From: Psilocybe cubensis
Taxonomy: Eukaryota
Direction: 5' to 3'
Length of the DNA: 64,000 bases
NCBI GenBank assembly: GCA_017499595.2
Contig: CM039003.1
Span: 1,798,001 to 1,862,000 of the forward strand
Shown here: positions 7,035-64,000 of the stretch, one piece after another
How the letters are laid out: each line of letters begins with the position of its first letter
Position numbering within the stretch: the first letter of the stretch is position 1
Program-made: the position numbers and the translations under genes
Notes under the pieces: model-generated
Databases searched by the model: none
Told to the model about the DNA's origin: nothing
Seen by the model: only the letters and a program-made list of their open reading frames with translations

Positions 7035-7071
<37 letters not shown>

Positions 7072-26431: not shown

Positions 26432-29217
<2,786 letters not shown>

Positions 29218-39644: not shown

Positions 39645-39818
39645 TAAACCGTATGCCAGTGCATGGTATCAATCCACACAATTAGCGCAGTCGATACATG
39701 AATGTTCAGTGTTATATAGATAGTTGCATGCTATATATATATTTTATAACTCGTTGATGAGGATGTCTGTATTGGTTACATTGTAGAGCATACAACACAT
39801 ATGACATACAGTAAACAA

Positions 39819-41296: not shown

Positions 41297-41396
41297 NNNN
41301 NNNNNNNNNNNNNNNNNNNNNNNNNNNNNNNNNNNNNNNNNNNNNNNNNNNNNNNNNNNNNNNNNNNNNNNNNNNNNNNNNNNNNNNNNNNNNNNN
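41297..41396. other. Assembly gap (100 N)
   Basis: Run of exactly 100 N, probably a placeholder of unknown true length. Confidence 0.99.
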
Positions 41397-44213: not shown

Positions 44214-44243
44214 CTTGAGTTGAGGGCCGTTGCTTCGCACGGC
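44214..44243 (-). terminator. Helitron 3' terminus (hairpin 44226-44243 + CCTCAACTCAAG|T), copy 2
   Basis: Same sequence as 34120-34149; outer flank TTAGATC differs from copy 1 (TAAGAAC). Confidence 0.85.
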
Positions 44244-44377
44244 GATACGAGTCCTTGATTTCCCTCACCCTATGATAAGATTAGATACTGATATCATCAT
44301 ATTGTATAATATAAATAAGAACATCATAAACATTACGTAAATATTTATGTTAAGTTGCGTGTACTGTAAACGCCAGT

Positions 44378-45059
44378 TCAATCGTCGAATCTAGGCTGCT
44401 TCAAATTACTCCAATCCCATCTTTCGCGATCCCATGAAGGAGGCCTGGTGATAACGTCAGGATGACATCGTACAGTATACTGATCCATCAAATTCTGAAA
44501 ATCTGTATTTGCATTATAATTAGACAGTGTAGAGTACGAATTCGTGTTTGGGAAACCTACAGTTGCCTTTGCTAGTTACTATCAGCCTCGTTGACGGTAG
44601 TTGAAATGGCTCTTTCATCGATAGTGAAGTTGATGAGGCTGTCTCTTGAATTGAGTTGCTTGAGGTTATTGGCCGTGGAGGCACTGATTCTGTCATCGAC
44701 CTCGCTGACGACTTTGCCCGACCGTTGCAGTTACTCTTTTTCCGTCTGTTGATTTGAATTTTTGAACGGCTCTACACAATGTATGTTAACGAAAATTAAA
44801 AGTGTCCTTAATGATGGTTCGCACTCACCTTGTGGTTATTCGAATGTCTCGTAAAATCGCATCTCTTGAGATGCTTTGTCCAATGTTGAGGGTCGAAGGG
44901 CCATTTCTTCGACAGTAATATGCTCTTCCCGCAACTTTTACACTCCACTGAGTTCTCAGTGACCGATGCTGCCAAGGGGTCACTCAGTAGGGCGTTACGC
45001 CTTGCGATAGCTCTTTTGTAGGAACTACTTTCCGTAGCGTTGTCGTGCAAGACGTCCAT
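44378..45059 (-). CDS. Helitron cargo: small C2HC zinc-finger-like protein, copy 2
   Basis: Same sequence as 34284-34965; C-x2-C...H-x3-C motif preceded by RR..LL.DP....V. Confidence 0.6.
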
Positions 45060-45799
45060 GTAGAAGTAGAACTTCGCTAACCAGATGTTTGGTCGTTGAC
45101 ATATGCAAGCACGTGCTACGTAGGCTTTTGAAGTCCGACGCGATGATATCGTTGCCTGCACCGATGGGGCGTGCATACAATCGATGTTATGGAGCGGTCG
45201 TTAGTTTGCGCGGTCGTGTTTTGGTATACCGTTGATGTAAGGCAGTGACAGTTCTCCTGAATTTTTTTTTTTCAAGGTTAACGTGGAGGCGTTTCAATCA
45301 ACAAGACAGCGAGGAGCAATTCACCTCGCCACGATATTTTCCCCATATCTGTTAAACTGGGTGGATGTTCGAAAGCATGATTTTGTCAGACCTGTGTCAA
45401 CAGATGTTGAGATAAGCTGTATATTATATGGGCCGAGGTTAGCACGTAGAACAAACTTCGTTTTGACGCCTTCAGTGAATGCAAACGCACATTCCGTTCA
45501 GGCGTGCAACAATCCTCCCGTTGCCCGTTCAACTCATTAACTTTCTGTTAATTCGTAGTACAGTATATGTTCTGAAGGATAGACAGCCAACGTGCTGTCA
45601 ACCGGCTTCGGTGAGGGTCCGTTTATTTTCGTTCGTTCGATCTCAGTCCAAGCTCGTCTACAGTCAGGAGTGTGAGTATACATCGACTTTCACCGTGCAA
45701 TCGGTCTCTCACCTGAATCAATGTATTCCAGACAACTAATATCGATTATACCCGTTGTACCGTATTCTCTCAGTAGTGCATCGAGGGGATTCGGTCATG

Positions 45800-48145
45800 T
45801 TATAGTGTCTCATACCACTCGATACAAGTTTGACCGCAGTAGACCGTTGACGGAAATGAAGAAAAGTGACTGGTATCGCATGGTTTCCACCCTAAAAGTT
45901 GCTTGAGGTTATCAGTGGCGCAACAATCTAAGAGGGGGAAAGTTGTTTGGGTGCTACTTACTGTCAGGATTCTTTTGTATTGATAGAGAGGCGTACCGCC
46001 CAGACCGTCGAGGGCACTTTGAAAATTGTTGATCACACTGCATTTATAAGTCAGTTGACTCTCAAATACTTTGGCATAAAACTAAACGACTTCATGTTGC
46101 ATTGCGTCAGAAACCACGGAGTGTACGGAAGAAGATCATAGCAGGATGTGAATGGAATATAGGAGACATAGAGGAGTGTACGCAATGCACACAACAGAAC
46201 CCCGGAAGCGGACTGAACAGGCATGTGATCTACCAAAATACCTACTGTCCACTTCCGTTACTCAGAACTGCTTACAGGTGTTACCTTTGTTTCACATTTG
46301 CTAATGGCCGTACAATTGTGTGCACTAGAGGAATGTGCGTCTTCAACAGGCAACAGTGCCCTCATCAGCACGCAGTCCTTCTACCTCGCACCTTCAGTAC
46401 ACTCCATCCAATGATACTCTTCACCACAAAAGATTCGCCCGCTCCCTCATCCTCCAACTTCTCCAACCATAGTTGATCAACAGCTCGTAACCGTATGAAG
46501 AGGATGGAAGAATGTACCGTGATGCCTGTGTTACCGTGAGTGTCAATGTATCCTCTGAAATATACTTTCATTTGAGTGCTCGTGTCTCTTTGCACCATCC
46601 ATCCACCTTGGTCAACGTCTTTACGACAAACGAACGGATAGGTGCGAGACTGTGAGATTAATTGCCGTCTGCTAGGCGCTCGTGAGTTTCACCCTATATT
46701 GTCAACATAGCATGGCACTCACATACAAATAGAGATCCGGGTTCGATCAACCAGTCCGCAACACACTTACTCATACATTGTCGGTGCACACCTAACTGGG
46801 ACAACGTCAATAGACGCACCGACATATAGCATAGAAAATGCGGTCCGACGGACGTTAGCGCGTGTATTGGTTTGGAATTCAGCAACCGTGCAACCTCAAA
46901 TCACCCAAACAGAGATGGATCAAAGTTTCTTTGTACACCGCCTACTCTTCAACCCATCCAGTTTCCGTAAAAAACTGCTTAAACGGGAGTCGGTGTTTGC
47001 AATGTGGCACGTCGAGCGTACTGTCGTGAGTTTCAATGTGTTCATAGACCTTCGTCCGAGACATGCTGAAAATGGATGGGTCGTCTAACTTCAGCAAAAA
47101 AACACAAGACATTTACAACGCATGGGACGCGAGATACGGATTAAGACGGCGTCTGGCCAACTGTTAAACGCTAAAGTCTGTATGACTTGCTGTGTATCCA
47201 CCGTATAGTTTCGCACTCACAATAATAGGTAGTTCCAATAAGAGGTGTATACAACACGATACGACCCGGCATGTTGGAGAAGTTGAAATTCCTAGATCAA
47301 AGTTGTATTCCATGGTACGTACCCATATTTGAAATGTCTAAATGCGGTGGCTTAATGCAAAATCTGCAGATGTTATTAGTTGGCTTCGTACGTTGTCAGT
47401 TTTTTTTTTTTTACGTGTTCGTGAAGGAATCCCAAGTAAGTCTAGAGAGGGTGATACAAATAACGTGAAAAGACTTACCTCTGTGTCAGTACTTCAACAT
47501 GATAGTCCGCCTCTTGACTATGGACATTTATTGGGGTCTTTGTATCTGCGGTGTAACGTCAGGCAATACAATTGCGCGCAACAGGGCACTTCAATGGACC
47601 AAAATCATTATGCCACACCTATGAACCATACACCAGCATATAAATGCGCTTAAGAATAAACCATACCTACGTCGTAGGTTTGTTTCGAACAGGCTATCCG
47701 AGCTGAACGAGTATTCAAGATGACCTATATCAAACAAAGCGTTTCCGTAGCACCTGCACCGCATCGAGTGTGACTGATATGGCTTGTAGTGGTTCGTTCG
47801 GATAAATATTCGTTTGGAGGTCGATGCAGAGTCTGAGTCTGTTCATGTCGGTATCAAGATGGCCTTCGTATCGATGACCTGGGCGATTCGGGTGAGTCTT
47901 CGACACCTGGCGATACTCTCGATTATGACACTTATCTCAACTCCTAGCAACGGACACCATATACCAGAATGCCGTTGTATATTGGACAACATCTCAGGTA
48001 GGTCGCCTGGTGTAAAGTTAAAGTTTATCATGTCCAGAGTCATGCGCGTATGACATCGTAAGCTTTTATATCCTGATTATGTTTGAAATTTACTCACCAT
48101 CGCCTACAAGAGGGCGTGATATCTGTCTCGGCTTTCATTCAATCA
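45800..48145 (-). other. Probable further intron-rich cargo gene(s) of unknown function (also at 35706-38051 in copy 1)
   Basis: Short open frames bounded by GTRAGT/GTGCG donors and YAG acceptors on the minus strand (e.g. VINNFQSALDGLGGTPLYQYKRILT|gtaagt). No recognisable domain; gene model not resolved. Confidence 0.3.
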
Positions 48146-48397
48146 TGGCTTCTCATGGTCTACAGCGTCTGAGTCGCTGATTCGATGTTGTAGTAGCCCG
48201 TAAACAGCATTATCAGCCAATGTTCGCTTGTCCGATTTCCGTTTGGAGCCCGCGCTCTGAATGCCGAACAATCCGTGACCAGCGACGAAAGTCCATATAT
48301 GGTGGCCTTCCCATTTTCCATTTGCCACGTAATTTGTATCCCGCCAACTTCTTACCATCACCTGCATCTGCGGCCCCTCAAAACCAGCGAACAAAGA

Positions 48398-49738
48398 ATG
48401 GACGTAAATATAGGTAAGGCAGCATTCTTCGTAAACCTTTTCTAACAACAAACTAACGAACTTATTTGTTTCCTCTTTATTTTACAGTCGCAGCATACGG
48501 ATTGGCTTTCAGCCATGCCTTGGCCATTTTTTTGGTCGTCTTCAGGCTCATTATCAGGCGGTGCGACAAACGGTGTTGGTACGACGATGGGCTGGCGGCT
48601 GTGGCTGTGGTTGCAGACTTTGTCATTGCCCTCACATTGTTTAAATTGGGTGCGTTGTGATACTTTTTTTTTTTTTTTTTTTCTTTTTGTAGCCAGTCTT
48701 TTTTTATTTTACATTGATTGACATATATCATGGGGTTGCTATGTATAGCCATCGACACACCTACCGCCCTTCCTGTTTCCTACCGAGTCGAACTATTTGC
48801 GTTCTTTATAGTTTTGTGGTGCGTAGTCACTTTCCACAACAAGCATGGCCACTTATTACTACGAATGCGCTGTCCAGGGTCTCCCGCGCCAGTATAGTGC
48901 TATCACCGAATCGACTGCACAAGGCCAAACAACTCCGTGTATTATGGGGCTGGCTGTACGCTGTCATATTCATCGCAATCGGCATTATCTTCTCCACTTT
49001 CGCCATATTTGTGTGCAAGGTCAACACCGATTGCAAGTCGGATACTGTGTGTCCATGCCAACCACCTTACATTCTGCTGTTGTTTTCTCTTATAGGTAAG
49101 TCACACTTCATCTAATCGACTGCCCATTGCTGACTGCTATATAGCTGAACTCATTGCTGATATCTTGATTATTCGACGAAGCTGGACTATACTAATAGTA
49201 GAAACCCGCGTGTCCTTTTTCAGACTGACGCACCGTTGGCGTGCCGTCGCGTTAGGTTACAACAGCAGCGTTTTCATAATGCTGTCCAGCGCCGTGTGGT
49301 TCGGGATTTACGTCAAGTTAGCTCAACAATATCCAATGTTAGTTGTGTATGCATTAAGCGCTACTGTGAGTTCTTTATCTACACCATCATCTACAACATT
49401 GCTTCATTCTGCCTCAGGCCCTCGTGTCCTTATTGGCCATCAATGTGCCCGTCATCACGGGACCTCCAAGCAACAAAGGTCGTCGCACCCGCCTTCCAGT
49501 TGCGGGGCAAGACGTCATTCAACTAAATCGTCTCCAACCAACCACCGCTGCAGGACATGATGTTATTCAACACAATCGTCTCCAACCGATGACCGATGCG
49601 GTAAATCACGAAACATTGGCAAATATAGCAGAGGCAGTGGATCGCAACGCTTCCAAGATATACAGTGACAAAGATTCAGGCAAGGACATACAGTTTAGGG
49701 CGCCCAATAATTCTGTGGAAAGTTTGTTCGACGACTAG
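48398..49738 (+). CDS. Helitron cargo: Pth11-like / fungal rhodopsin-domain 7TM protein, copy 2
   Basis: Same sequence as 38304-39644; antisense to the element and convergent with the Spt5-like gene. Confidence 0.7.
49502..49597 (+). repeat. Two degenerate 48-bp tandem units in the 7TM gene tail (AGQDVIQLNRLQPTTA / AGHDVIQHNRLQPMTD); also at 39408-39503
   Basis: Visible 16-aa duplication. Confidence 0.8.
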
Positions 49739-49912
49739 TAAACCGTATGCCAGTGCATGGTATCAATCCACACAATTAGCGCAGTCGATACATGAATGTT
49801 CAGTGTTATATAGATAGTTGCATGCTATATATATATTTTATAACTCGTTGATGAGGATGTCTGTATTGGTTACATTGTAGAGCATACAACACATATGACA
49901 TACAGTAAACAA

Positions 49913-52616
49913 TTATGGCAAATGAGTACTAATGTAAATATCGTGTTCGTGTCTCATCTGATTCCGATTAGCATTCTTTCTCTTTTGAGTTTCATAGGCC
50001 ACACAACAATTTTCGGTTGGCGTCAATAGCTCGCCATCCACTATTTGATCAGCTCCTCGATCAGTGGGCAGTACTTGTTTGACCACCAATACCACGCCAT
50101 TGGTATCCTTCCTAGAATGCACACGTCTGACGCATTTACCCGCGTGTTCTCCTTCAATGATGGCTAATAACCCAAAGTCGTGCTTGATGGTAGGATGTTT
50201 GGGCTTTATATGGGTCGATTCAATCCGTAACGTCCGCTTCGAATTGGGTGTAAATCGCATCATGCACAGCTGCCCATCCACGTCCTCCTGAACGATTACA
50301 AACAACGGAGAAACGTGTCCATCGACGGTTGCCTCTTCCACCGTCAAAGGAACTCCAATCAGCTCTCGTTTCAACAAAAGATTACAAGGAGTGGTTAAAG
50401 ATGCAACGTTGGTACCGTCGCTTGAATTTACGACGACGGTTCCTATGCTAATGCTTGTTAAATCTTCTGAATGGTCAGATGGATCCCACGCAGGCGAGGT
50501 GTCCTCAATAGTATCAGGCAATGGTGTATGTCTGCCACTGTCAGCGCTTTCAGTTCCTGTGGTTATTATGATCGATGGGTTGGCGAAGTTACGAGACTGG
50601 TGGACAGCGTTCGAATCATACGTCTTCGACAGGCTTAGAGGCTCAAAGGTACTACAAGCCGTGAGCGCGAGTACAAATCGGTAAATGAAATACGCTTACC
50701 TGTATTCCAGTACGTCGTCTCTGTTCAAAACAATTTTCTTGAAGGGATTCGACGGATCATATCGAGTCGGCTCTACAACTAAACGCAACTCAGGTTGACC
50801 TGTTCTTGGGCTTACGGACTGTAGTACCTCGGCGACAATGCCGATTAAGCCTTTGAACGTATGATGTACCTTGCTCACTATCACAGTTACACCTTTCCAA
50901 CGATGATATCGGGTCGTGTGTGATGTTGGGATAAGCGCGAGGAGCGATGAAGGCTGACATGTCGTCGCATCTCCCAGAGAAACGAAATTCCTGTGCATAT
51001 ATATAATCTGAGATGTATGCATGAGCCAGAGTATATATACGGTTAAATGACAAATACTTGCCTCCAACATCGAGTCGGCTGTATTGATTTGCTGGTCTTT
51101 TGTAGTGCCTTGCTTATCGATTAGTTGTATTTCATCTCCCTTGATGTCCACGACCCAACCCGATCGTCCAGCATTAACGCCAGCGTCAACCCCTACGTAA
51201 TCCCCTATTTCGAAATGTTTTAAGATGTCACTCCATACGGTGCGTATTGTTGTCAACAGCTGGGTCGTAGTTGTATCAACTCTGTGGATTTCAGTTTCGT
51301 TGTAATGTTGACCAGTTTCGTCATGGTCGCAGCCTTTGTTGTATATATCGACATCGACCATATTATCGTCGTCGGCTTGCGCAATGACTCCGAGCCAACC
51401 TGTAGATCTCATTACCACCCATTCCATGGTTCGCATGATCCATTCCTTTGGCTTTGGTATCGGCGCGTGATGGAGTGCGGGATGCCCACTCATACAAAAT
51501 GATGTATACGTCACGTAACTCAGACCTTCACGACATGAGGCAACGTGTCTGGGATCGTAGTCCACCCGGGCCAAACCATGCTCAAAGATCAGATCACCTA
51601 CGCGATAGACAGATGCTCTGCCTGATTCTATGTATAAATGAGAGTTACGAAGGCCTGTCGGATCGAATAGCTTAGGCGCGGGCACCGCAGTGTATGTCTT
51701 CCGTTTACGAGATGACTTCGTTTTGGTGGACACGTACTCGTAACGGGGGATCATAAGCATTGACACCCCCCACGATCCTTTCGAAACGACAAAGCCTACA
51801 TCGCCTTTGTATACACCTCGTTTAACCTTGAGCCATTTTCCGACCGATAGGTTCGTAATGTCCCCTCCCATGTACAACAGTTGCTGAGCCTCATTCTTAT
51901 CGATCGGACTCAGGAGCACGTCCGTAGTTTTTACGATGATGCCGGGCGATCTTTTGATAAGGTCAATCATAGGCTGATCCATCAAACATTCCAAGTATAT
52001 GTATCCATGTACAGAACTGCGTGAAAACGCGGACCGAATATGATGTTCTCGGCGCGAGTTTTTGAGTAAAGAAGCGACCGCGATTTCTTCGTATCCGACC
52101 TTACGTATTGTTCATCGATATGGTTGGCAACACACAAATTTAATTCGATGGTATTAAACTTACTTTACATCCAATCCTCCATGTAGGATAGTCCGTGGGC
52201 AGATTTTCGAAGCCCGAATCAGTGTTTCCGTGCGGTGACAAAACAGTAGGATTGTCAGCGTTTGAATACAATGGTTCCACACCCCGGTACATATCAGAGG
52301 CGGGCAGTGAGTGAGATCTACCACGTGTTCTCTCTTCAATTTGTTGAATTACGAGGGCCAGTCGGTCTCTCTTTGTAACAGGAATGGGTTTGTCCATTGC
52401 CACAGATGATGAACCGTCACAATCTTCATGGGATTGAGTTCCGTCGTCGATGAAGCATTCTGCGAGTAAATTTGGTTTATCTCGTATGTTGGAATGACAT
52501 GAGACTGAGTAAAACGAAATATTATGCGCACCAAATTCGTCAGATTCGGCTGAACCATCCTCTGAATCTCCGTGATCGACATTCGCTTCTAAGTCCAAGA
52601 ATGGGTTGGGAGCCAT
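49913..52616 (-). CDS. Divergent Spt5-like transcription elongation factor (acidic N-terminus, NGN domain, multiple KOW motifs), 5 exons
   Basis: N-terminus NPFLDLEANVD...FIDD. NGN: YPTWRIGCK|VGYEEIAVASLLK...IRSAFSRSSVHGYIYLE. KOW1: LSVGKWLKVKRGVYKGDVGFV...MIPRYEY...PAPKLFDP. Further KOWs: KHFEIGDYVGVDAGVNAGRSGWVVDI and WKGVTVIVSKVHHTFKGLIGIV. CTR remnant: GRHTP...SPAWDPS. C-terminal KOW-like: HIKPKHP...LAIIEGEHAGK. Confidence 0.82.
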
Positions 52617-53218: not shown

Positions 53219-56200
53219 TTATTCCCTCGCGTAAATAGCATACAATGCATGTTTCAAGTTTCCCCCATTTACGGAAATGCGTAGCCATTGAGATACATCA
53301 TTAACAAGGTCATGAACATTACCCTCCTTTACGCATCTATTTCCAGTAGTAATGCCGTCGTGGAACCACACGTCCCCTTGCAGGTCAACATACCGAGAAA
53401 CAAAATGATGTTGCCCGCCGTAGACAACCCCAGTAAGCTTATACTCTACGTTGAAACTATCCGATTTGAACATAATATCAGGGTTTATAGCAAACCGTGG
53501 CGAGCATATATCCACTGTCATAATGTAAGGTAATCGTTCAACCTTATGGCATAGCGACATATATACGATATGCTGATTTTGTGCACACGAAGGGCAATTC
53601 TTCGAACTCAATCGTTGAGCATCGCTCAGGTTAAAACCTAAACTGTCTGAAATAGAAGACACCTCCTGGGAGTCGTCGTGGAAAACGCCAGTGCGTGCCA
53701 CACTTATATATTCGCCTAGTCGCATTACGGGTCTTTGGTCATTGTAGCCGCATTTACTGCACACGAGAACAGACATTCCAGAAGATCGCTGGCCCATCAC
53801 AGCGGTCATAACTCTGTCAATGTATGTCATATTTGGACCCATAGGAAAATCAAGCGGGCTGCGTGAGTGCATATCGTTTCTGACGTCGTTTCGTGCGCTC
53901 TCTAGAGAAATTGATCCATTCTGCACAAGTGCGAATTGTCCGCTGAGTCTGTCTAATAACGGTGTCAAATCACTGAATCTATTGGTCCACATCTCAGGTG
54001 CACTTATCCATAGGTTATATAACACGGTAAAGATGGAGTCGTAACTGCAACTGTAGTTGTCCGCGTCCCACTTTGTACCTACAGGTAGGACCGCAAACTC
54101 GGAGGGTGTGCTTAGCAACATTCGTTTCCTCGGTCCTATACAGTCTGAGCGAATTGGTTGGCGCTTATTGCGCTTATCTTTTGCCCTGTCGGTGACAATT
54201 GCCTTAACACTGTTGAGAGACCAGGTGCCGTCCTTTTCCGGAGTTCTGATAAGCTGCTTTGATGAAGAGACTGCCAAGGTAGGATGCCAGTCTGTACCAA
54301 TGGATTGCGATACGTCGAGAAGCATGAAAGACCGAATTGTCGGATTCCTTAATCCATGCAACACGCCGTCTGGAAGCTGTCCATTGTATTTCATGGTGGT
54401 GATATGATCTAATATATTGAGTTCACGGAATTCCTGGCGCAGGTGCCCACTAATACCCTTTGTAATCTTAGACGCATCGAATCTACCGAGTAAGATGGTA
54501 CCACTGGCGTTCGAACTTCTAGATACACAGGTGTAATAAGACGAATGATCCTTACAATGATCTAAATGTATCAAGTTATAATCTCGCGTCTTACCTTGAG
54601 ACGAATAATCGGTCATGGCAAAATTGGGCAGCACTAATACCTGCTGGCGGTTTACATTGATTTTTGTGCCAGACTTGAGAGTACATGTTACTCGAGACGA
54701 CGTTCGCGTAAGTGGAACAACATTAACAGGCAAGTCAGCTAATGATACAGGGTTCGGCGGTCTGATTAATTCCACGAACAGCGTATCAAGTACAGGTCTA
54801 CCAAACGCACCAACAGAAGATTCCCATCCTACGACGACAGCCTCCTGTCCTTTAGTGATACACAACTCTGTGGCGTCGTTATGCCGTATCATAACTGGCA
54901 GACCTACGCACAGAGAAAGTTTTGCTGGCACTTGTTCGCTAGAACAGGCGCTGCGACCCCATAGGGCTTCCTGAAGACGCTGGGACATCTTTGTCTGTTT
55001 GGTTGCTTTAGACGATCCTGATGGTCGTCCGCGAGGCCTGCGAGTTTCTCCTTCTTGTGTACCCAGACTATCGACAGAGAAAAAATGATGCAATGTACGT
55101 CCGCTCTCTTTAGCGTATCTTGCGATGCCCTGCTCATTGAACCTATCCTTTTGATTATTCCACGCAGTGATAACAGATACGTTGCGAAAAGCAGGGTCAG
55201 TCAATATAGGTTTACCTTCAATAGTCGTCAGTTTAGAAGCTAACCTTGACTTGAGGAACGATATATCAGCGTCTGTACAGGCGGCATACCGCATGTTTTC
55301 AAGTGCAGTGCGCAACTTTGCGTCTTCCTCAGTCTGCGTTTTTTGTCTCATGTTTTGTTTTAGAATAACGACAGTCGTGAATTGGTGCCAGAATATCTTG
55401 CCTAGAGTAGCTTCTTGCTCGGACACCTTCATGCGAGCGTCTTGCGTATGTTTAATGGAAGGACTATAAAAGGGGAGATTACCTACCGGCGGTAGCTGAG
55501 CGAAGTCACCAGCTAAGATCATTGATATACCTCCGAACAGTGTATCGTCGTTAAACACTTGTGACAGACGTCTACTAATGGCATATAAATCCCTCGACGA
55601 CAGCATAGATATTTCATCAATAAAGATATACTTGACACCCTTTAATCGAGCTCGTACGTCATTTATTACTGCGACTTCGTTTTTTGAAAAGTCTTGACCA
55701 CGATCCGACTTGGACCGTATTCCTAATACACTGTGATAAGTAGATCCGTTGAGGAGTGCAGCAGCGGTACCTGTGGGTGCGAGAACCACAAATCGGTGAG
55801 ATTCGCCTCTCGACTCAAACATATGAATGATAGATTTGATCACTTGACTTTTGCCAGTACCGCCCATGCCACCGAGATGCATCCTCAGCTGACCAGGCGA
55901 CAGCAAACTAGCGTGATTGGCAACAATACGGAAAGCCCTTTCCTGTTCCGTATTCAAGGTGAAATCGGCGACTGTAGAATCTACTAACACATTATGTTCC
56001 ATTTGCTTTGCCTTGTACGACCTGAGCAGATAATCCGAAGAAACTACTTTGACGTCATTAGTAGACTCTTCGTTGGAAATATGAATGTTTGTTATATCAT
56101 CTGAGGGATCTGAAGGCACGTAACCGGACAACTTCTGTTTAAACAGTCTAATTTTTTCAGCTTTTATTAGAGATGCCCAGCTCGTATGCGTCTTGTATTC

Positions 56201-59200
56201 AGCAGGCCTGAACATGCTGACTTCTTGACATGTAACATCGCTAGAGGCGTTAGAAAACAATCCTGCAGATTGTATGATGCCATCTACTTCTCGCTTTAAC
56301 AACACCTCTCTGCGGTATGCCTCACCAATCTCTTCATAATCTAAATGATCTTCACCGAATTCAAGGCCGACAAAGTCGTTGTATTGATCGTCGAGACCGC
56401 AACCATCAGGATAGAGTTCATCCGTGTAAACATCTTGTTGTTCTCCGTCTTTCCTTCTTAACTGTGCGTGAAAATCGTCTCTGTCGTCTAAACATTCATA
56501 TCGCAGATTAAAGTTATCCATTAGTTTCAACTGTCGGTCGGAAAAAGCGTAAATGGTGAATGCATGTTCCCAAGTCTGATGCAATGATTTCAAATCTAAC
56601 CCAGACCTCCAAGGTTTGAACAAGGTCAGCATACTGCAACAATAATACTCTCTGTCGCCTTTGTCGCGCCGTGGAAGGGGACCGCCTAGAAAATTGGGGA
56701 CAATATTGTGCGCTCGGGATGAGTCACATTTGACTACGTGAGTGGAATAAAGAGGGTGCTCCTCAGTGAAACGTTCAAAACTTCTTTTGTTTATTTTAAT
56801 ATTTTTTCGCACACCGTCATATTTAACACGTTGATCAGAATCATCATCTGCAGGTATACCAAGACATGCATCAATGAAATCTTCCATCCCCCCGCCTTCA
56901 CGTATGTCGGACGCATGATCATCTTCGAAGGTGAGTGTTTCACTACGCAAACGCTCCATTTCATTTTTAGTGAGCTTACGGCGCTCATAAGATCTAATCC
57001 AGTCGAATAGAGACATGTCTTCTTGAGTGACTGGGCGGTATTTATAATCATCTACATTACTAGAACCTACATAATGACCGTCATGTCGAGCTAATATAAC
57101 TTTCTGTTCTTCATCTTCAGCATTTTCTAGATCCTCTACGGTAGGTAGGTGGGCGGCTTGGTCATCAGTGATACCGGATTTATGACTGCTCCTTGCGTCA
57201 CTTACAAAACTTCTCCACCAAAAAGGTACAAAGGTATGATCAGTGTAATGATCAGGGTTGCCCAATAAATACAAGGAGGCCATCGGAGAACCTATCTCCA
57301 TCTTAGAAGACAGAGAGTTGACAATTTTAAGCATCAACCTTCTGCCTGCGTCTTTACCTTCAATCTTGACATCGTCTTTAACTTTTTTTTCTTCACGTTC
57401 AAACACGTCATACATAGAGGTAAATATCTGATACGTTTTCAATGCGGGTTTGCTAATATAGTCTGATATATAATATATTATTGCTTTTATCGAAGTACCC
57501 GACAACAGACATGTCACGTCGGTATTACTTCTTGTGAGGTACGACAGCGGAAGAGTAAAGGTATTTAACATCGCTTCCAACTTTTTCAAAAATATGTGAC
57601 CGTCGACGTGATCGACTTGAGACTGTTCGTACAGCCTTCGCGGAAATCGTGCTTTACAATTTCCATTCCAATCCAGGCAACCTTTCGGGCCCTTAGGCAT
57701 ATTTTTTATACCTTTTGATCCGTCAGGGTCATCAATTTGCTGACCGTATGAAACAGTGCATCTGTGCACATTGGACTTCAATATGATATCATCGACTGTA
57801 GTTTCGTAATTGTCCCACCATTCAGCATTAGAAATGCATGATGTGCAGTGGTCCGGACCATTGGAATCTTGACAAGCATGTTCTACCGGTATAGGGAGTG
57901 TTAGAGTCGGATCTGCGTAACTGGAATTTACAGCCTCGTCATCCTCTTGTATAATTGAATGAAGTCCATCAATTTCTTTGTCGTAAATATGTGGCACGCG
58001 GTCTTTAACAGTCTGCATGTTTCCTGTAAGAAATTCGCCTTGATGACAGCCTTCCAAATATGATAGAAGGCTCGCCTGAAATGCAGAGTCGTTGTTCATA
58101 ATACGGTCACGGATTTGCTGTGGAGACAAGCAATTCTCAATCCATAGTAACATATGCAAATGTAAGGTGAGTCTTCCCTGCTGTTCTACCGTACCATAGT
58201 ACGCTGAAGTTTTACCATACAAACCTCGATGAATATTGGATCCGACGCCTAGCACGTGTTTAATAAACAATTCAATTATGAGATGAAAAAAACGGGCAGC
58301 CGATACGGGATTCTGTGCAACCAGTCTATTCCTTTCAGAAGAAGGTAATATGTCTGGTGTAAAGGTCAGCTGTTCTTTGGCATAATATATTGATATAGGA
58401 TGTCTGTTATCGGCAGGTGACAAGGTTATAAACCATATTGGGCAACCTTTGAAAGAAAGCAAAGACCATATCTCATTGCGCATATACTTTTTAGACGTGA
58501 TTGACCCTTTAACATATCCTCCAACGTGGTCAAGATCATCTAAAAGTTTGTAACAGTCTTTCTCACTGTCTGTTTCAGGTGATACATGGTCCCCATTTAC
58601 AAGACGAGAGGAAATGTCTTGAAGAACCGTTTTGTCTATAGAGAGCAATCTTTTAGATATCGCATCAAAATTACGGCGTTTTGCAACAAGAAAGCTACCA
58701 GTAACGCCACCTTTCAGTTGCTCGTGATTGAATGCAATAATAGGAAAATAAAGGTCGCGCTGGAAACGCTTATCATGGTGCATAAGCAGTATTCGCTTAT
58801 GTTCTGACTCTGAAAGTTTACGCTTATGACAATGCTGACCTATTCCACCATAACCGTAAGGAAATAGCCAAGGGAACATCTGCGGATAGGCCTGAGGATT
58901 ATCGTACATAGACTGCGGTTTTGGATCATGCCCAATAGCTAGCATTTTGCCTTCATTTTCTATGTGTTGCAAGGCTTTTGCCTTCAAAGCTTGTATGGAC
59001 ATATTGCCATAGTCTGTTCCACTCAAGCCATGGACAGTAAACGGACAAGGTCCGTCTACAGTTCCTTCATCTTCGCCTTCGTCGTGTAGACTCATTGTAG
59101 ACTCCATACGATTAGTACCGTTGCGCTGTCTGTAGTCTACAGCTACGGGGACACCTATCAGCGGGTAAGACTGGAGATTTTTCTTGGATATTTCAAGATC

Positions 59201-61576
59201 AATATAATCCTTATGGTTAAGTTTCAACCATTCCAGAGCATCTGCGACCTTATTGCGACGCACTAGCATTGGACTACGCTTGAACTCTTCTTCCGTGGGT
59301 TGGGTTGGTCCTGTAAATATAAAGGCAAGTACCTCGTCAAGTTCTGGCTTTGAAGGAGGTAATTCATGATACACTTTCAGCGTTGGATTAGAGTACATGA
59401 TGACATTTGCTGTCATTTTAGCCCGCCCAGAGGAAACTCTGACCAGACAGCGATTATGCCGAATGCGAGCAATCATCATGCGCTCTGCAAACGAAAGATC
59501 TTGCAGCTGAGAAGGTATTTTACCTAACCACAAATGATTTGCAAGCGAATGTCTCGGCACATGACCTTTTTTCAACGCAGCAGAGCAAGTATCGCATACA
59601 TGGTTACATGCAGGATCGATCACAGGGCCCGGGATGTCCTTCACCGGGTCGTCAGGATGTAATCTCTCTACACGGGTAGCTCCCTCAACTGCGAGTATGT
59701 CAAGGGGATGATCAAACATAGACAAGTGAGTTAAATTATGCAAAGGCTGCAGCAGACCGCAGACCATGCAGCCTGCTTCCTCCAGTAGAGATGCAGATGA
59801 ATCAGCGCAAAATCCATTGATGATTTCCTCTATCAGAAGCTTTGACGGTGGTTGTGGCGGAAACACATGGTCGTTTGAAGTGTGGTCAGAGTCTGATGTG
59901 GATACAAAAGCATCACCGTTGAGCATGTCAACATCGGAATTAGCAGATTCTGCGCCTGCCTGCCTCTGACGTTCTCGAGATGCTCGTTTATGTAGAACAT
60001 TTTGGTTACGATTATGCATGATTGACTCTTCTGAATTGACTGTACTAGGTATTGCCTCAAAGATATATAAATGAGTGGAACATATACCACATTCATGACC
60101 ATCTGTTAATTTTATCAGAGCAGATTTTTTGGTCTTGGAATTAAATGATGTAATACCGTGTTCTTTCAGTACATCCCGAAGCTCGCTTGAAGTGAGCCAT
60201 TTGGTTGCACTTTGTATAGAAAATCGACAAAGAACTAGACGGCGTTTGTGGGGTGCGGACGCTTCGGCAGAGAGAAATGACTCTAAATCACGTATGTACG
60301 GCATATACCTAACGAACTTGTATGTATCACTATAATTAAACGATGCTGTGCCACTATAGGGTACAATATGACTTTCTATTAAAGCAGATGAAACGAAGCG
60401 AGAAAAATTTACAGCACTGTCTGTAAGTTCAAACTGCCGATCTGGATTACAAGAAGATGAATTGCTCTTAATTTTTCTATCTGACACTGATACCACACGT
60501 TCAAAAATACAGACATTACGAAGGCAAGTTCCGCACACATGATCACGCAAAAGTTCAATGGCATTGCCTCTATTTGTGGTTGAATTGATGCCGTACACTC
60601 CATGTAAACTTGCAATAGACCTAATTTCAGAAACAGACAGCCAACTAGCAGTGTCAAAGAGAGAGAACCTAGCAACTATTAAATCAGATATATTGTCAAT
60701 GGAAGTTGAAATGTGAGCGTCTGTAGCAAGGTACTTCACAAATCTGTATTTAGTTTTAGCTTGAACGGAGGCACATCCCGTATCTTGTACCACACGGTAT
60801 CGCAAAATCTCTGAGCTGACAACCTTTGAAACACCGCCACCTCCGCCTTGCAAGACATCGGAAGGATGATAGTATGAGCATTCAGAAACATTAGCAGTAA
60901 ATGAGATGTAGTGGAAATAGTTGAGACCGAATAACCAGGAACACTGAAACGGATACATTAGAACGCCCTTCGATACTATATTAATGAAGGGATATTTCTC
61001 TGACCAAAGACGAGGTTGCGTGTAATGTCTGTCGAGCGTGAATTGATGCAAGGCGCATCTTGGCAAAATGGCTACCAGGCACCTATTATATTCCCACTTC
61101 CTGAGATGATTACGTTGGAGCAACAGAGATACTAAAATAGAAACTCTACGTGTATACGTTGCAGGCGTGAATCTTAACCACAAATAAGCCGACATTGAAT
61201 GACAATCAATATATATGAAGCGGCGAAATTGCGAGTGCAACAAACGCACATTTCCATACGAGTGGGACTGTTTGACGGGTATCTCAGAAGCGGACGTAGT
61301 AGTACGATTCAAGCAATGCATAACATGAACTAATACTACAGTAAGACGCACTCTACAAACTTTGTGCCCACTTGATACGCTGCTAGATCTAGTACATGTA
61401 CGACTACGCAATAGATTATTGCCAGGAAATCGAACATCGTAGGTTGGAAATTCCCCACAGGGTAAGCAAAAGTCTATTGACCAATTATTTGTTTTAAACA
61501 ACTGTTGATTGACAGCTATACAACTACTAAGCATCGATATTGTTCGAGAATCACCAGCATAATTGGATGCGTTCAA
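53219..61576 (-). CDS. Helitron Rep-helicase transposase (DUF6570-like + HUH/Y2 Rep + PIF1 SF1B helicase) with a C-terminal USP-like protease domain
   Basis: Stop-free 2,785 codons; the ORF begins at TTG, so the true start is uncertain. LANHLWLGKIP..LQDLSFAERMMIAR (DUF6570-like) and FPWLFPYGYGG. Rep motifs: WFITLSPADNRHP, GTVEQQGRLTLHLHMLLW (HUH, ~58141-58200) and YYISDYISK (~57451-57480). PIF1 motifs: GMGGTGKS (~55845-55873), LAPTGTAA, FIDEISM, GDFAQLPPV, LKQNMRQ, FAMTDYSSQGKT, YTCVSR. Confidence 0.95.
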   Translation of the reverse strand: MNASNYAGDSRTISMLSSCIAVNQQLFKTNNWSIDFCLPCGEFPTYDVRFPGNNLLRSRTCTRSSSVSSGHKVCRVRLTVVLVHVMHCLNRTTTSASEIPVKQSHSYGNVRLLHSQFRRFIYIDCHSMSAYLWLRFTPATYTRRVSILVSLLLQRNHLRKWEYNRCLVAILPRCALHQFTLDRHYTQPRLWSEKYPFINIVSKGVLMYPFQCSWLFGLNYFHYISFTANVSECSYYHPSDVLQGGGGGVSKVVSSEILRYRVVQDTGCASVQAKTKYRFVKYLATDAHISTSIDNISDLIVARFSLFDTASWLSVSEIRSIASLHGVYGINSTTNRGNAIELLRDHVCGTCLRNVCIFERVVSVSDRKIKSNSSSCNPDRQFELTDSAVNFSRFVSSALIESHIVPYSGTASFNYSDTYKFVRYMPYIRDLESFLSAEASAPHKRRLVLCRFSIQSATKWLTSSELRDVLKEHGITSFNSKTKKSALIKLTDGHECGICSTHLYIFEAIPSTVNSEESIMHNRNQNVLHKRASRERQRQAGAESANSDVDMLNGDAFVSTSDSDHTSNDHVFPPQPPSKLLIEEIINGFCADSSASLLEEAGCMVCGLLQPLHNLTHLSMFDHPLDILAVEGATRVERLHPDDPVKDIPGPVIDPACNHVCDTCSAALKKGHVPRHSLANHLWLGKIPSQLQDLSFAERMMIARIRHNRCLVRVSSGRAKMTANVIMYSNPTLKVYHELPPSKPELDEVLAFIFTGPTQPTEEEFKRSPMLVRRNKVADALEWLKLNHKDYIDLEISKKNLQSYPLIGVPVAVDYRQRNGTNRMESTMSLHDEGEDEGTVDGPCPFTVHGLSGTDYGNMSIQALKAKALQHIENEGKMLAIGHDPKPQSMYDNPQAYPQMFPWLFPYGYGGIGQHCHKRKLSESEHKRILLMHHDKRFQRDLYFPIIAFNHEQLKGGVTGSFLVAKRRNFDAISKRLLSIDKTVLQDISSRLVNGDHVSPETDSEKDCYKLLDDLDHVGGYVKGSITSKKYMRNEIWSLLSFKGCPIWFITLSPADNRHPISIYYAKEQLTFTPDILPSSERNRLVAQNPVSAARFFHLIIELFIKHVLGVGSNIHRGLYGKTSAYYGTVEQQGRLTLHLHMLLWIENCLSPQQIRDRIMNNDSAFQASLLSYLEGCHQGEFLTGNMQTVKDRVPHIYDKEIDGLHSIIQEDDEAVNSSYADPTLTLPIPVEHACQDSNGPDHCTSCISNAEWWDNYETTVDDIILKSNVHRCTVSYGQQIDDPDGSKGIKNMPKGPKGCLDWNGNCKARFPRRLYEQSQVDHVDGHIFLKKLEAMLNTFTLPLSYLTRSNTDVTCLLSGTSIKAIIYYISDYISKPALKTYQIFTSMYDVFEREEKKVKDDVKIEGKDAGRRLMLKIVNSLSSKMEIGSPMASLYLLGNPDHYTDHTFVPFWWRSFVSDARSSHKSGITDDQAAHLPTVEDLENAEDEEQKVILARHDGHYVGSSNVDDYKYRPVTQEDMSLFDWIRSYERRKLTKNEMERLRSETLTFEDDHASDIREGGGMEDFIDACLGIPADDDSDQRVKYDGVRKNIKINKRSFERFTEEHPLYSTHVVKCDSSRAHNIVPNFLGGPLPRRDKGDREYYCCSMLTLFKPWRSGLDLKSLHQTWEHAFTIYAFSDRQLKLMDNFNLRYECLDDRDDFHAQLRRKDGEQQDVYTDELYPDGCGLDDQYNDFVGLEFGEDHLDYEEIGEAYRREVLLKREVDGIIQSAGLFSNASSDVTCQEVSMFRPAEYKTHTSWASLIKAEKIRLFKQKLSGYVPSDPSDDITNIHISNEESTNDVKVVSSDYLLRSYKAKQMEHNVLVDSTVADFTLNTEQERAFRIVANHASLLSPGQLRMHLGGMGGTGKSQVIKSIIHMFESRGESHRFVVLAPTGTAAALLNGSTYHSVLGIRSKSDRGQDFSKNEVAVINDVRARLKGVKYIFIDEISMLSSRDLYAISRRLSQVFNDDTLFGGISMILAGDFAQLPPVGNLPFYSPSIKHTQDARMKVSEQEATLGKIFWHQFTTVVILKQNMRQKTQTEEDAKLRTALENMRYAACTDADISFLKSRLASKLTTIEGKPILTDPAFRNVSVITAWNNQKDRFNEQGIARYAKESGRTLHHFFSVDSLGTQEGETRRPRGRPSGSSKATKQTKMSQRLQEALWGRSACSSEQVPAKLSLCVGLPVMIRHNDATELCITKGQEAVVVGWESSVGAFGRPVLDTLFVELIRPPNPVSLADLPVNVVPLTRTSSRVTCTLKSGTKINVNRQQVLVLPNFAMTDYSSQGKTRDYNLIHLDHCKDHSSYYTCVSRSSNASGTILLGRFDASKITKGISGHLRQEFRELNILDHITTMKYNGQLPDGVLHGLRNPTIRSFMLLDVSQSIGTDWHPTLAVSSSKQLIRTPEKDGTWSLNSVKAIVTDRAKDKRNKRQPIRSDCIGPRKRMLLSTPSEFAVLPVGTKWDADNYSCSYDSIFTVLYNLWISAPEMWTNRFSDLTPLLDRLSGQFALVQNGSISLESARNDVRNDMHSRSPLDFPMGPNMTYIDRVMTAVMGQRSSGMSVLVCSKCGYNDQRPVMRLGEYISVARTGVFHDDSQEVSSISDSLGFNLSDAQRLSSKNCPSCAQNQHIVYMSLCHKVERLPYIMTVDICSPRFAINPDIMFKSDSFNVEYKLTGVVYGGQHHFVSRYVDLQGDVWFHDGITTGNRCVKEGNVHDLVNDVSQWLRISVNGGNLKHALYAIYARE

Positions 61577-62267
61577 GGAGTGTACATTAATGCAACATTG
61601 TATGTGGCCACATAGGATTCCTACAAAATAGCGACAAATGTCAGATCATACACAGTACACATAAGGAGAAGATAACTCACCCCAACCAGAAACTAAAATA
61701 AAAAGAGCGTAGAAATGAAGTGATGCGGCGAGCATATATAAAAGAGTAATGTAAGTTTCAAGGTAAATAGATATGTTCACTAGTCTGATGGATATGAGTG
61801 TGAGATCGATCAAGGGGGGGGGGGAGGAATGTGTAGGAATAATTAAAGGAATCGCATCGAGGACCCTCGATTTATATAAGTAGACACTGACAACAGGTAA
61901 CACCGGGTAACTCTGTGTAGCGTACGATTATTGACAACGGGCGCTTAAATTTTGGCAGAGGGGACACGCAAAGGAAAAGCATATGTCCAACTGTAATGCC
62001 ATGATAATATGTATGTATTATTATATCGGGAGAAATTTGTACGGAAGACAAGTAGAATATGATACGAAGCAGTTGATAAGACAGAATACTAACTGGATAT
62101 TCAAAGATACAGGAAGCAGAGTACAAATGACACGAAGAAAGAACAAAAACATTGAAGTAATAGACTACGCGACGTATATGATACCAAAAAATAACAACAG
62201 ATAGCAAGGAGAATGTAAATAATACCATAACTATGTGTATTAAAAGACATTAGGTTTAATGAAATAT

Positions 62268-64000
62268 TCAGTCTTCATCAAAACCTGCAAAGGACTCCTG
62301 TTCTGCCTCTATGTCGCTGGTATCGTGTTCCGTACCGAACACAACGGCATACTGTATGTTGGTACACAGATGAAATGACCGTTCCTTCTCGTATTGAGTC
62401 ATAGTGTACGCCACCATAACAAAGGAGTTAGGTGGAATCTCTCCGCGACGCCATCTAGGTAGCAATTCGTCTAACCGGTCGAGGTCAGTGTTGAAATTGA
62501 AGGCATGGTTACGTGAATCATATATGGGAACTAATATATGACATTGTCAGTGGTTTGAAGCACATACAATGTTGATAACTTACTAGTGTCGGTTGAATCC
62601 ATCATGGTCTTGAACCTGGTGCTTGATTTAAGTGCTTTTCGGCTTCCTCCTTGGAGTTTGGCATCTTTCTGTCCAGAAAGTATGCCGGGTGTCCTAGGAG
62701 GTTTTGAAGGAGAGATTGATTCCCGCTCCGCTATTTGAGTGAGTGTCTGAGTGAGTACAAAAAGAAAAAAAAAAAAAAGTAAGCATATGTGCCCACTGAC
62801 ATTTAACTCCCATAGTGCCAAAGGTGATTGCCTTATCACGGATAGAGGCTACCATAACCTGATGTCCGAACGCCATGCAAGCAAATCCAGCGAAGCGTTC
62901 CCACTCCTGGTGCATCATGTGACCAGACAAAAATTTGTTACACAGTCCTTTGGATATCGGCTCCAATAGATACGAATCGCGGGTGAGAATTGCACTCAGG
63001 CAGATAGCAGGCACCGAGTTGCACTGCAAAGTGGCACGCTTACGATCGTTTCCCATATACAGGATGCTGACGTCCAGAGGCGAAACCCGCGAAGGATTGA
63101 TAAAGTTCTTGTTCCTTACAAAAGTCACAGCGTCATAAGCGTTTCTATATAACATAGTAGAGAGAGTAAGCAATACGCATCATTAAGTAAAGTATAGCAA
63201 AGGCTTTACGAAACTCACTCAAAATTCATCTCAGGGAAATTCTCACCGCAGAGAGAAAAAGAAACACAGTCGACTGGTGCCATGACATTAGGCGAGTTCC
63301 ATTGCTTGAGAATACCATGCCTTGAAATAGTCAAAACAAAACATCGATTATCTTAGAAGGTAAAAACTTACTGAAGATTGGGAAGGTCAACGTAAGTGCT
63401 TTCTAAAAGACTATCTTGTAAATCTGTCTTCGTAACTTCGCATTTCTTCGGCAGATGTCTTAAGGTCAGACACAAATCAAGTCAGACAACAGATTGAAGA
63501 TGACATATGGGTACGTTAACTTACTTGACCGAGAAGCGCATGGTATCCTCCATCAGAGCCGGCCCGTTCAATCCAAGACTGGGAGTTTTGTTCACAGGAC
63601 CGGCAGGCACAACATCCTTGAACTTGCGGGGAACTCGAACTGGAGTGACAGGTGTAGGGGGAGCTTCAACAGCGGCATTGATTGGAACAGCTGTCAAAGA
63701 AGATTGAAACTGCACTTGTCGAGTTTTTGGCTGTTCAGAAAGACTGGCCATAACCACATCAGAATGCGCGTCGATAGATTTGGCACTGTTGAATAAAGGT
63801 AGATAAAGACGATCACATATATTGGCATGACGGATATTTACCTTATTACAGACGCCTTAAATTGAACAGGGGGGTCCAAAGTCGAATGTTCGGTTTTAAG
63901 AGCATCTGCTTCACTGTACTTTTCATACGCATCATCGAGCGCTTTGAGCAACTTGCTAGAGGAAGGACCGCTGGGGAGAGCATTGGAAGATGGATAAGTG
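62268..64000 (-). CDS. Helitron-associated multi-exon gene; candidate OB-fold ssDNA-binding protein with acidic tail (5' end outside the window)
   Basis: Exons splice in frame: ...HLPKKCEVTKTDLQDSLLESTYVDLPNL|...|NAYDAVTFVRNKNFINPSR...HQEWERFAGF...AITFGT|...T|IPIYDSRNHAF...EIPPNSFVMVAYTMTQY...LCTNIQYAVVFG...EAEQESFAGFDED*. The gene is well supported; the SSB function is inference. Confidence 0.6.

Follow-up and report, generated by a model that had tools for sequence, protein, structure and literature searches.

A large Helitron2-type element of Psilocybe cubensis encoding a transposase with a predicted USP-fold tail and a diverged Spt5 paralog

Introduction

Helitrons that carry genes in addition to their transposase have been described from fungi and animals. 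The present study deals with an element of this kind in a 64,000-nucleotide stretch of the Psilocybe cubensis genome (GenBank assembly GCA_017499595.2, contig CM039003.1, positions 1,798,001 to 1,862,000), referred to as the window, in which the gene for the Helitron transposase RepHel is followed by a gene for a diverged paralog of the transcription elongation factor Spt5.

USP-type peptidases appear in Pfam under the name UCH. In the HELIANO survey (Li et al. 2024, PMC11417382), DUF6570 was introduced as a marker of the Helitron2/HLE2 clade, extra domains were reported to occupy fixed positions, and UCH as well as Ssb-like_OB were found to be almost exclusive to HLE2. Like these elements, the one in the window encodes a RepHel with DUF6570. 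However, UCH as detected by its Pfam model was one of 17 domains residing in open reading frames (ORFs) separate from RepHel (PMC11417382), whereas the USP fold described here is fused in frame to the transposase and is missed by the Pfam UCH model (0/44 family members). Spt5, NGN or KOW are not named in the accessible main text of that survey, its full 20-domain Supplementary Table S11 aside.

Animal Helentrons carry deubiquitinases of the VTD and OTU types, of which the zebrafish VTD enzymes cleave ubiquitin and NEDD8; a role in shielding proteins on which transposition depends was suggested for these domains (Erven et al. 2022, PMC9741609). Helentrons and the element of the window share a papain-fold, ubiquitin-type peptidase that is built into the transposase and has conserved catalytic residues. 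In Helentrons, the peptidases are of the tegument-like and OTU classes and the hosts are animals, whereas a USP-class domain with predicted activity is found here in a mushroom; moreover, the AP endonuclease present in animal Helentrons (PMC9741609) is absent from the window's element.

Among fungi, HELPO1 and HELPO2 of Pleurotus ostreatus represent autonomous Helitrons whose RepHel contains introns and whose carried genes, of unknown function, are expressed (Castanera et al. 2014, PMC4289320), and they resemble the window's element in being autonomous agaric Helitrons with carried genes. The HELPO RepHel ORFs were described as devoid of RPA, zinc-finger, endonuclease and cysteine-protease domains, and neither ubiquitin nor KOW is mentioned in the accessible text of that paper (PMC4289320).

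Accessory genes shared among unrelated transposons are exemplified by the TET/JBP genes, which occur in 11 transposon lineages including EnSpm, Plavaka and Helitron2 and are thought to help elements escape silencing (PMC12730594). The Spt5-like family considered here would be similar to TET/JBP in representing one accessory family across unrelated transposon lineages of mushrooms, with transfers between them, but TET/JBP is a DNA demethylation enzyme and the Spt5-like protein a paralog of an elongation factor. Spt5, KOW and 'elongation' do not occur in the accessible text of the TET/JBP paper (PMC12730594). Furthermore, no description of a transposon-borne Spt5 paralog was found in the literature searched on Helitrons, Plavaka, Spt5 and fungal transposons.

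As far as is known, no transcription factor other than Spt5/NusG is conserved throughout all living organisms. Its specialised copies direct polymerases to particular tasks, examples being RfaH in bacteria, SPT5L in plants and the meiotic Spt5 in ciliates, and specialised NusG/RfaH paralogs serve horizontally acquired bacterial DNA. Diverged second Spt5 proteins with NGN and KOW domains, devoted to special transcription tied to transposon control, exist in plants, where SPT5L/KTF1 (RDM3) belongs to RNA polymerase V, and in Paramecium, where the protein is meiosis-specific. They are single host genes acting in silencing pathways, whereas the Spt5-like gene of the window is carried in transposons and occurs in many copies; by analogy, it would be a eukaryotic, selfish-element counterpart of the RfaH-type NusG paralogs. 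The known tools of Helitrons are single-stranded DNA-binding proteins (SSBs), endonucleases and ubiquitin-type peptidases, and an element-encoded transcription elongation factor would add a novel type of transposon tool.

Results and Discussion

Organization, copies and extent of the Helitron

The element is an autonomous Helitron of the Helitron2/HLE2 clade, and it is multi-copy and recently active in P. cubensis. In coding-strand order, it comprises a gene for an 855-amino-acid (aa) protein, RepHel with the USP-fold tail, the Spt5 paralog, poorly coding DNA and a defined 3' terminus (coordinates are compiled in Table 1). Based on the intact HUH/PIF1 transposase, the near-identical copies and the sharp 3' end at several sites, the structure is interpreted with good, though not complete, confidence as that of an autonomous HLE2 Helitron with retained accessory genes. 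An initial annotation of the window had already described a large Helitron with extra genes and three co-oriented genes; both statements were confirmed by the intact RepHel motifs, an unbroken unit of at least ~24 kb and the location of all three genes on the minus strand.

Two copies were recognized in the window. Copy 2 represents the 3' 19.8 kb of the Helitron, its 5' end lying beyond the window. Within-window comparison aligned 34115-41296 with 44209-51390 with one mismatch in 7182 bases, the left flanks being unrelated. This sole mismatch (at 34118) is located in the flank, and the 7176 bp inside the element are identical. Identity between the copies starts at 44209-44214, and contigs from a public DNA run containing the whole stretch break at 44212-44214, matching the left end of the element; accordingly, the left boundary at 44214 given in the initial annotation was right to ~2 bp. 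The flank contig from the same run fits the window up to 44214 and then diverges into other sequence.

Two short contigs representing the terminus showed word depths of 293 and 266 as compared to 58.6–66.5 for the element interior, i.e., they were ~4.5–5x deeper. Both diverge into other sequence after ~48 bp, and in one of them the terminus is followed by a third flank unlike the other two. The three junctions share ...AC/TTGAG (plus strand). Probably, numerous shorter or non-autonomous elements related to this one have the terminal ~48 bp in common with it. Regarding the interior, one contig covers 44230-48653 (depth 66.5) and another one of 19.8 kb (depth 58.6) covers 48695-64000 plus 4422 nt past the window end without any branch; the single internal break among the contigs of the element corresponds to a poly-T tract. 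The element is therefore at least ~24.2 kb long. RepHel, the Spt5-like gene and the upstream gene reside on one unbranched contig and were therefore amplified together. Public data list the Spt5-like model P0004 under four NCBI accessions (UniRef n=6), and the cluster of the upstream gene has six members. Depths and accession counts, uncalibrated by single-copy depth, point to approximately six interior copies and several-fold more copies of the terminus. Two further runs, presumed to be RNA, contributed a single contig with two matches of 18-21 nt to the stretch, which has no bearing on expression either way.

It was also considered whether the locus is a composite or an artefact, in which case the Helitron would end soon after RepHel and 44215-~53200 would be a nested element or host DNA that was duplicated or misassembled. 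Copy 1 abuts the 100-N gap, relatives of the Spt5-like gene usually accompany transposons with terminal inverted repeats, and the 3'-terminal hairpin lacks significance, all of which would suit this explanation. Nevertheless, it is judged very improbable: the unbranched contig from 48695 to beyond 64000 crosses the junction between RepHel and the Spt5-like gene, three different flanks are all joined to the repeat at one identical base, and the same adjacency was encountered in an independent locus (L007, see below). Moreover, no convincing inverted repeats bracket the Spt5-like segment, and neither tnp2, Plavaka nor any other neighbour gene of the 80 Spt5-like loci described below was detected in the window.

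A head-to-tail tandem with 41397-44208 as the element's own 5' end is unsupported. This segment is devoid of the N-terminus of the upstream gene, and the flank contig of the DNA run continues elsewhere, like an unfilled site of another repeat. As a separate observation, the flank of copy 2 (42840-44214) is represented by a deeper contig (depth 83) running past 44214 into other sequence; this flank resembles a separate repeat family of which some copies are unfilled, and such copies would supply an empty-site sequence for the insertion.

The RepHel transposase and its USP-fold tail

RepHel is encoded by a stop-free frame of 2808 codons. Pfam analysis placed DUF6570 at residues 693-825 (1.3e-39), Helitron_like_N at 953-1167 (5.3e-33) and PIF1 at 1897-2108 (5e-27), and the HUH, YxxxY, Walker A and Walker B motifs were found by eye and script. 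The uninterrupted frames initially ascribed to all three genes hold for RepHel, whereas the Spt5-like and upstream genes contain introns. The first ~230 codons of the RepHel frame are not protein-like, and in relatives of 2355-2598 aa DUF6570 is located 260-420 residues nearer to the N-terminus. As judged from these sequence features, the probable start of RepHel is close to Met230 (60958) or within an exon further upstream, corresponding to a protein of ~2580 aa. Ahead of DUF6570, two HeH/SAP-like helix motifs were noticed at residues 335-350 and 483-498 (60152-60643, minus strand), each of which precedes a Cys-rich stretch; the Pfam HeH match (1e-4) is below the cut-off.

The last 300 residues of RepHel (2509-2808) were modelled by means of AlphaFold2 on a 44-sequence alignment with a mean predicted local distance difference test (pLDDT) value of 93.3. 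Comparison of this model with the PDB using Foldseek resulted in at least 373 matches at E<=1e-3, and the top matches (E 1.6e-9 to 5e-8) were all USP catalytic domains, namely USP46, USP18, USP1, USP30, USP14 and USP12, with template-modelling (TM) scores of 0.41-0.57. The SUMO-specific USPL1 appeared lower in the match list, and its presence is no argument for SUMO specificity. The Rep-PIF1 transposase with a USP-fold tail that had been proposed initially is thus substantiated by the 2808-codon frame and its Pfam domains as well as by the high-confidence model and its top matches.

Within the 44-sequence alignment, the family is characterized by an invariant Ser-Cys-x-x-Asp box, two CxxC pairs, an invariant Tyr...His-Phe box and a near-invariant Trp-x-His-Asp-Gly. 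In particular, C25, H239 and the first CxxC pair (C121, C124) are invariant, and 90% or more of the sequences retain D255 and the second CxxC pair (C176, C179). C25, H239 and D255 are predicted to be the catalytic Cys, His and Asp, judged by motif order and not by superposition. Sequence-based searches of the PDB were far less informative than the fold: the tail profile obtained weak best matches only (USP46 at E 0.024 and USPL1 at 0.08), and the last 393 RepHel residues searched as a single sequence yielded chance matches only.

A shared-word search for the tail in long proteins returned no match, and an exhaustive search then uncovered 1161 relatives at E<=1e-3, of which 468 reached <=1e-10 (50%-identity cluster representatives). 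Eight relatives exceed 1600 aa, and the four of them that were scanned (2355-2598 aa) each combine DUF6570, Rep and PIF1 with the tail. Among ten shorter relatives scanned (346-1223 aa), the three longest (1031-1223 aa) contain PIF1 and the tail, six have no Pfam family and one has a sub-threshold match. A fusion of the USP tail to Spt5-like or upstream-gene sequence was not present among the 150 tail relatives listed. From this distribution we infer that the tail became fixed long ago in a large transposase lineage; it is not peculiar to the element of the window. A fold and predicted catalytic residues can now be given for a large Pfam-invisible family, namely the C-terminal tails of fungal Helitron transposases. 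In some database proteins (P0065, P0129 and P0117), the USP-tail domain is joined to long unrelated C-terminal regions; these joins are probably merged gene models or new fusions.

The Helitron itself, its HLE2 clade and the occurrence of a USP-type domain in HLE2 are known kinds, and the in-frame fusion of a Pfam-invisible USP fold is at most a new member of them. The novelty claimed initially for the combination of Spt5 and USP stands for Spt5, no published Helitron Spt5 having been found in the literature searched, and does not extend to the peptidase, UCH in HLE2 being already in print (PMC11417382).

The Spt5-like gene

The product of the Spt5-like gene is composed of an acidic N-terminus, NGN, KOW1, KOW2, one SPAWDPS motif resembling the C-terminal repeat region (CTR) of Spt5 and a C-terminal KOW-like segment. 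On the public model P0004, NGN scored 25.7 bits against the Pfam cut-off of 22.4 and KOW1 remained just under its cut-off; Pfam KOW exceeds the cut-off in the relative P0007, and the later KOW-like motifs were recognised by eye only. A 12-sequence family profile matched solved Spt5 chains of fungi and human from NGN through KOW2 with E-values of 2.7e-33 to 3e-28, plant SPT5L/RDM3 (chain 8hyj_W) with 5.6e-13, and archaeal Spt5 and NusG with 4e-6 to 5e-3. Furthermore, the nearest Atlas clusters are all Spt5; in two basidiomycete clusters among them (125 and 82 members), a minority of the members has Pfam domains. By these sequence measures, the gene is a real, diverged Spt5 paralog, as the initial annotation had proposed.

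Across 36 family sequences, conservation extends over the C-terminal half, which contains a near-invariant (S/T)PAWDPSS(R)TP motif (alignment A5). We take this motif to resemble a single unit of the fission-yeast Spt5 CTR (TPAWNSGSK); in genuine Spt5, the fission-yeast CTR motif is a kinase target. Regarding gene models, the public 744-aa model appears to splice out the KOW-like segment WKGVTVIVSKVHH..., which is retained in the relatives P0007 and P0011, and an alternative 789-aa model reads the WKGVTVIVSKVHH... stretch in a different frame.

NCBI and UniRef annotate the gene models as 'Transcription elongation factor SPT5', and the NGN and KOW homology behind this name is real. An ordinary host SPT5 gene adjoining the transposon by chance is nevertheless hardly conceivable, since identical copies exist under four accessions (UniRef n=6) and twice in the window, the nearest relatives share ~30% identity and themselves adjoin transposases, and the protein of ~750-800 aa has no CTR repeats as compared to ~1020 aa for the basidiomycete Spt5 cluster in the Atlas. 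The public label on these P. cubensis genes is misleading.

Genomic context, phylogeny and constraint of the Spt5-like family

In order to place the gene in its family, metagenome contigs were scanned with the family alignment; 124 Spt5-like relatives were detected, 80 loci were kept, and all of these were searched with the RepHel protein. RepHel was found beside the Spt5-like gene in one of the 80 loci, L007. In this locus, a USP tail (39% identity over 379 aa) ends ~1.5 kb upstream of the Spt5-like gene (34%) on the same strand, which is the order seen in the window. In a midpoint-rooted FastTree phylogeny calculated from 63 large-exon sequences, the window copy and L007 are sisters with an SH-like support of 0.93, and the gene-tree comparison suggested initially thus supports the link. 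L075, which belongs to a clade sister to these two Helitron-linked copies, contains a USP-like fragment of 67-87 residues downstream of its Spt5-like gene (L075:2402-2728); it may be the remnant of an older Helitron association. In L018, an unrelated Helitron lies on the opposite strand more than 6 kb away from the Spt5-like gene.

Clustering of the flank ORFs and Pfam scanning revealed other recurrent neighbours, namely tnp2/Transposase_21 (EnSpm type) in seven loci, the Plavaka transposase in five, and in addition several unnamed families and retrotransposon genes. Either tnp2 or Plavaka is present in 12 of the 34 loci with a total flank of at least 4 kb. In L025, L033 and L042, a convergent tnp2 transposase gene follows ~700 bp after the Spt5-like gene, and dS between L025 and L042 amounts to 0.24; the recurrence of this layout in diverged copies suggests an EnSpm-type element carrying the Spt5-like gene. 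The Plavaka transposase lies less than 7 kb from the Spt5-like gene in L028, L056, L058, L069 and L077, and two unnamed ORF families also recur in these loci, the gene order being of two or more types. Copies linked to tnp2 and to Plavaka fall into other clades of the tree than the window copy and L007. The Spt5-like family is, therefore, mostly not Helitron-linked.

The large exon is stop-free in 62 of the 73 loci with a long match, and the other 11 have one or two stops. For the ratio of nonsynonymous to synonymous substitutions (dN/dS), near-identical members of the 63 sequences were collapsed to give 51 groups, providing 168 pairs with dS between 0.05 and 1.5. The median dN/dS was 0.35 (range 0.21-0.85), and 155 of the 168 pairs were below 0.5; the pairs are not independent, and the 11 loci with stops and the seven with only short matches were left out. 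As far as substitution patterns tell, the family is under constraint, which answers positively the dN/dS check proposed in the initial annotation.

These data bear on the explanation that the Spt5-like gene, the 855-aa gene and the downstream DNA are passive passengers merely captured by the Helitron without benefit to it, the constraint stemming from functions for other transposons or the host. Such an origin would agree with the absence of RepHel from all but one of the 25 loci in which the upstream flank is long enough, the family being found beside tnp2 and Plavaka instead, with the lack in all 80 loci of anything related to the upstream gene or to the cargo DNA, and with the restriction of upstream-gene relatives to Psilocybe cyanescens and one further contig. 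On the other hand, the order of USP tail and Spt5-like gene recurs in L007, where the proteins are 34-39% identical to those of the window, and L007 and the window copy are sisters; a useless passenger should decay over such divergence, and the conserved order therefore speaks against mere capture. In addition, the three genes are intact in the window copy and stand together on one contig of the DNA run. Passive capture is accordingly regarded as unlikely, although it deserves more weight than the composite and host-gene explanations.

Weighing of the favoured interpretation

Retention of the accessory genes by an autonomous HLE2 Helitron remains the favoured interpretation, and a number of observations weigh against it or against parts of it. 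With regard to the peptidase, the TM-scores of the tail are moderate, and neither Pfam UCH nor UCH_1 recognized any of the 44 tail-family members at E<=0.01. With regard to Spt5, the profile of the C-terminal half had no match in the PDB, a CTR repeat array is absent from the protein, and the non-independent pairs and omitted loci temper the dN/dS values. The link between the two genes was observed once in 80 loci, or once among the 25 loci whose upstream flank measures 2.5 kb or more, some of these loci being near-duplicates. At the level of the element, the 5' end is beyond the window, so the T-T target or terminal inverted repeats of a Helitron2 are not visible; the 3'-end hairpin is no better than chance (z = -1.1; 30/200 shuffles fold equally well or better), and as copy 1 abuts an assembly gap, part of the duplication could be a scaffolding product.

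As a consequence, the initial proposal that Spt5 and USP form a general module of such elements was abandoned: with RepHel in 1/25 flanked loci, the association comes close to being confined to this family. The broader proposal of maintained accessory functions was retained for the USP tail, which is present in 4/4 long relatives, and for the constrained Spt5-like gene with its sister copy in L007, and was dropped where it relied on an SSB.

Proposed roles of the accessory proteins

In the model considered here, RepHel would move the whole unit by rolling-circle transposition. The USP tail would probably remove ubiquitin or a ubiquitin-like modifier from the transposase or from host factors at the transposition site, and this removal would protect transposition. 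The Spt5-like family would consist of passenger genes moving between EnSpm/tnp2, Plavaka and Helitron2 elements of mushroom-forming fungi, and one Helitron lineage would have acquired such a gene once and then kept it. The role favoured for its product is to bind RNA polymerase II via NGN and replace host Spt5, by which long transcription units such as the 8.4-kb RepHel frame could be read through or escape silencing.

The specific role of the Spt5-like protein in elongation or anti-silencing is put forward tentatively and is regarded as less likely than not. Similarly speculative is the wider notion of a family of transposon-borne Spt5 paralogs in three transposon groups that replaces host Spt5 for full transcription or as a shield against silencing; in the element of the window, such a paralog would act alongside a USP-type peptidase fused to the transposase. 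A constrained Spt5 copy on several transposon superfamilies points to mobile DNA securing or hiding its own transcription, and Psilocybe, Coprinopsis and Pleurotus represent hosts in which the idea of a transposon-borne Spt5 is directly testable.

The upstream gene and the poorly coding 3' region

Upstream of RepHel, the minus strand from 64000 to 62268 contains at least seven exons with GT-AG introns, and the first 399 of the 855 residues of the product are encoded outside the window. A one-exon query retrieved public models of 855 aa (P0170) and 713 aa (P0169), and the relatives, with 59-68% identity, were confined to Psilocybe cyanescens and one further contig. Neither the exons nor the whole protein matched a Pfam family at E<=1, the profile had no PDB match at E<=10, and the nearest Atlas clusters are unnamed basidiomycete clusters with no family. 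The AlphaFold2 model, built on an alignment of four sequences, is unusable (mean pLDDT 31.7). An SSB or RPA-like identity, for which the gene had been a candidate, is thus without support from Pfam or the PDB profile and was not upheld. RPA in HLE2 was found upstream of RepHel by HELIANO (PMC11417382); by analogy, the location of the 855-aa gene may be taken as a hint on position, which is no evidence on the protein.

Approximately 5.7 kb of poorly coding DNA separate the Spt5-like gene from the 3' terminus. No Pfam matches were obtained in 44215-49912, and in the 80 Spt5-like loci nothing related to this cargo, to the upstream gene or to the flank was detected. Of the cargo genes proposed initially, the seven-transmembrane protein is reflected by six hydrophobic stretches, but these are on the plus strand, distributed over three frames and without Pfam match; judged from hydrophobicity, the region could be an intron-split membrane-protein gene running in the opposite direction to the three main genes. 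The zinc-finger cargo is reduced to one CxxC...H...H/C motif without Pfam support.

Table 1. Positions of the Helitron copies, genes, domains and motifs in the window (+, plus strand; -, minus strand;., no strand).
Feature	Position	Strand	Basis and remarks
Helitron copy 1 (3' 7.2 kb)	34121..41296	-	99.986% identity to copy 2; ends at assembly gap
3' part of Spt5-like gene, copy 1	39819..41296	-	Copy comparison
Scaffold gap, 100 N	41297..41396	.	Conceals remainder of copy 1
Helitron copy 2	44215..64000	-	3' end uncertain by ~2 bp; flanks differ from copy 1
Terminal ~48 bp of 3' end	44215..44261	-	Short contigs 44212-44259 and 44225-44261; in more copies than interior
Short hairpin (weak)	44226..44243	-	5-bp stem GCCGT/ACGGC, 8-nt loop, 11 nt from terminus
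Frame with one CxxC...H...H/C zinc-finger-like motif (candidate)	44808..45200	-	By eye; no Pfam family below E 0.15
Six hydrophobic 19-residue segments, all three frames (candidate)	48499..49456	+	Kyte-Doolittle scan; no Pfam match
Spt5-like gene, intron-containing	49913..52616	-	Public model P0004 100% identical over exons
SPAWDPS motif	~50330-50360 (frame 49913-50695)	-	Alignment
RepHel open frame	53219..61645	-	Frame reading, Pfam, motifs
USP-fold cysteine peptidase tail	53222..54121	-	Fold model, Foldseek, alignment motifs
Tail WFHDG	53354-53368	-	Motif
Tail His box GGQHHFVSRY	53390-53419	-	Motif
Tail zinc-ribbon CxxC pairs	53744-53761 and 53579-53596	-	Motif
Tail Cys box NYSCSYDS	54035-54058	-	Motif
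PIF1-type helicase core	55322..55957	-	Walker A GGMGGTGKS, Walker B IFIDEISM
Rep nuclease	57449..58789	-	Helitron_like_N 58145-58789; HUH LHLHMLLW 58142-58165; YYISDYISK 57449-57475
DUF6570	59171..59569	-	Pfam; N-terminal to Rep
3' 456 codons of 855-aa multi-exon gene	62268..64000	-	Public models, exon reading

Surroundings of the element

An inverted-repeat partner of the 3' terminus was not found within the window. To the left of the transposon-rich part, ordinary host genes were identified, namely those encoding Sas10/Utp3 (22511-23791, plus strand) and a cullin (26633-28755, plus strand), and the element therefore adjoins normal gene space. Further to the left, an open frame at 6875-8176 (plus strand) combines the DNA-binding domain of Tc5 transposases with a CENP-B N-terminal domain and, as suggested by this domain content, may represent a pogo/Tc5-like transposon remnant or a domesticated gene.

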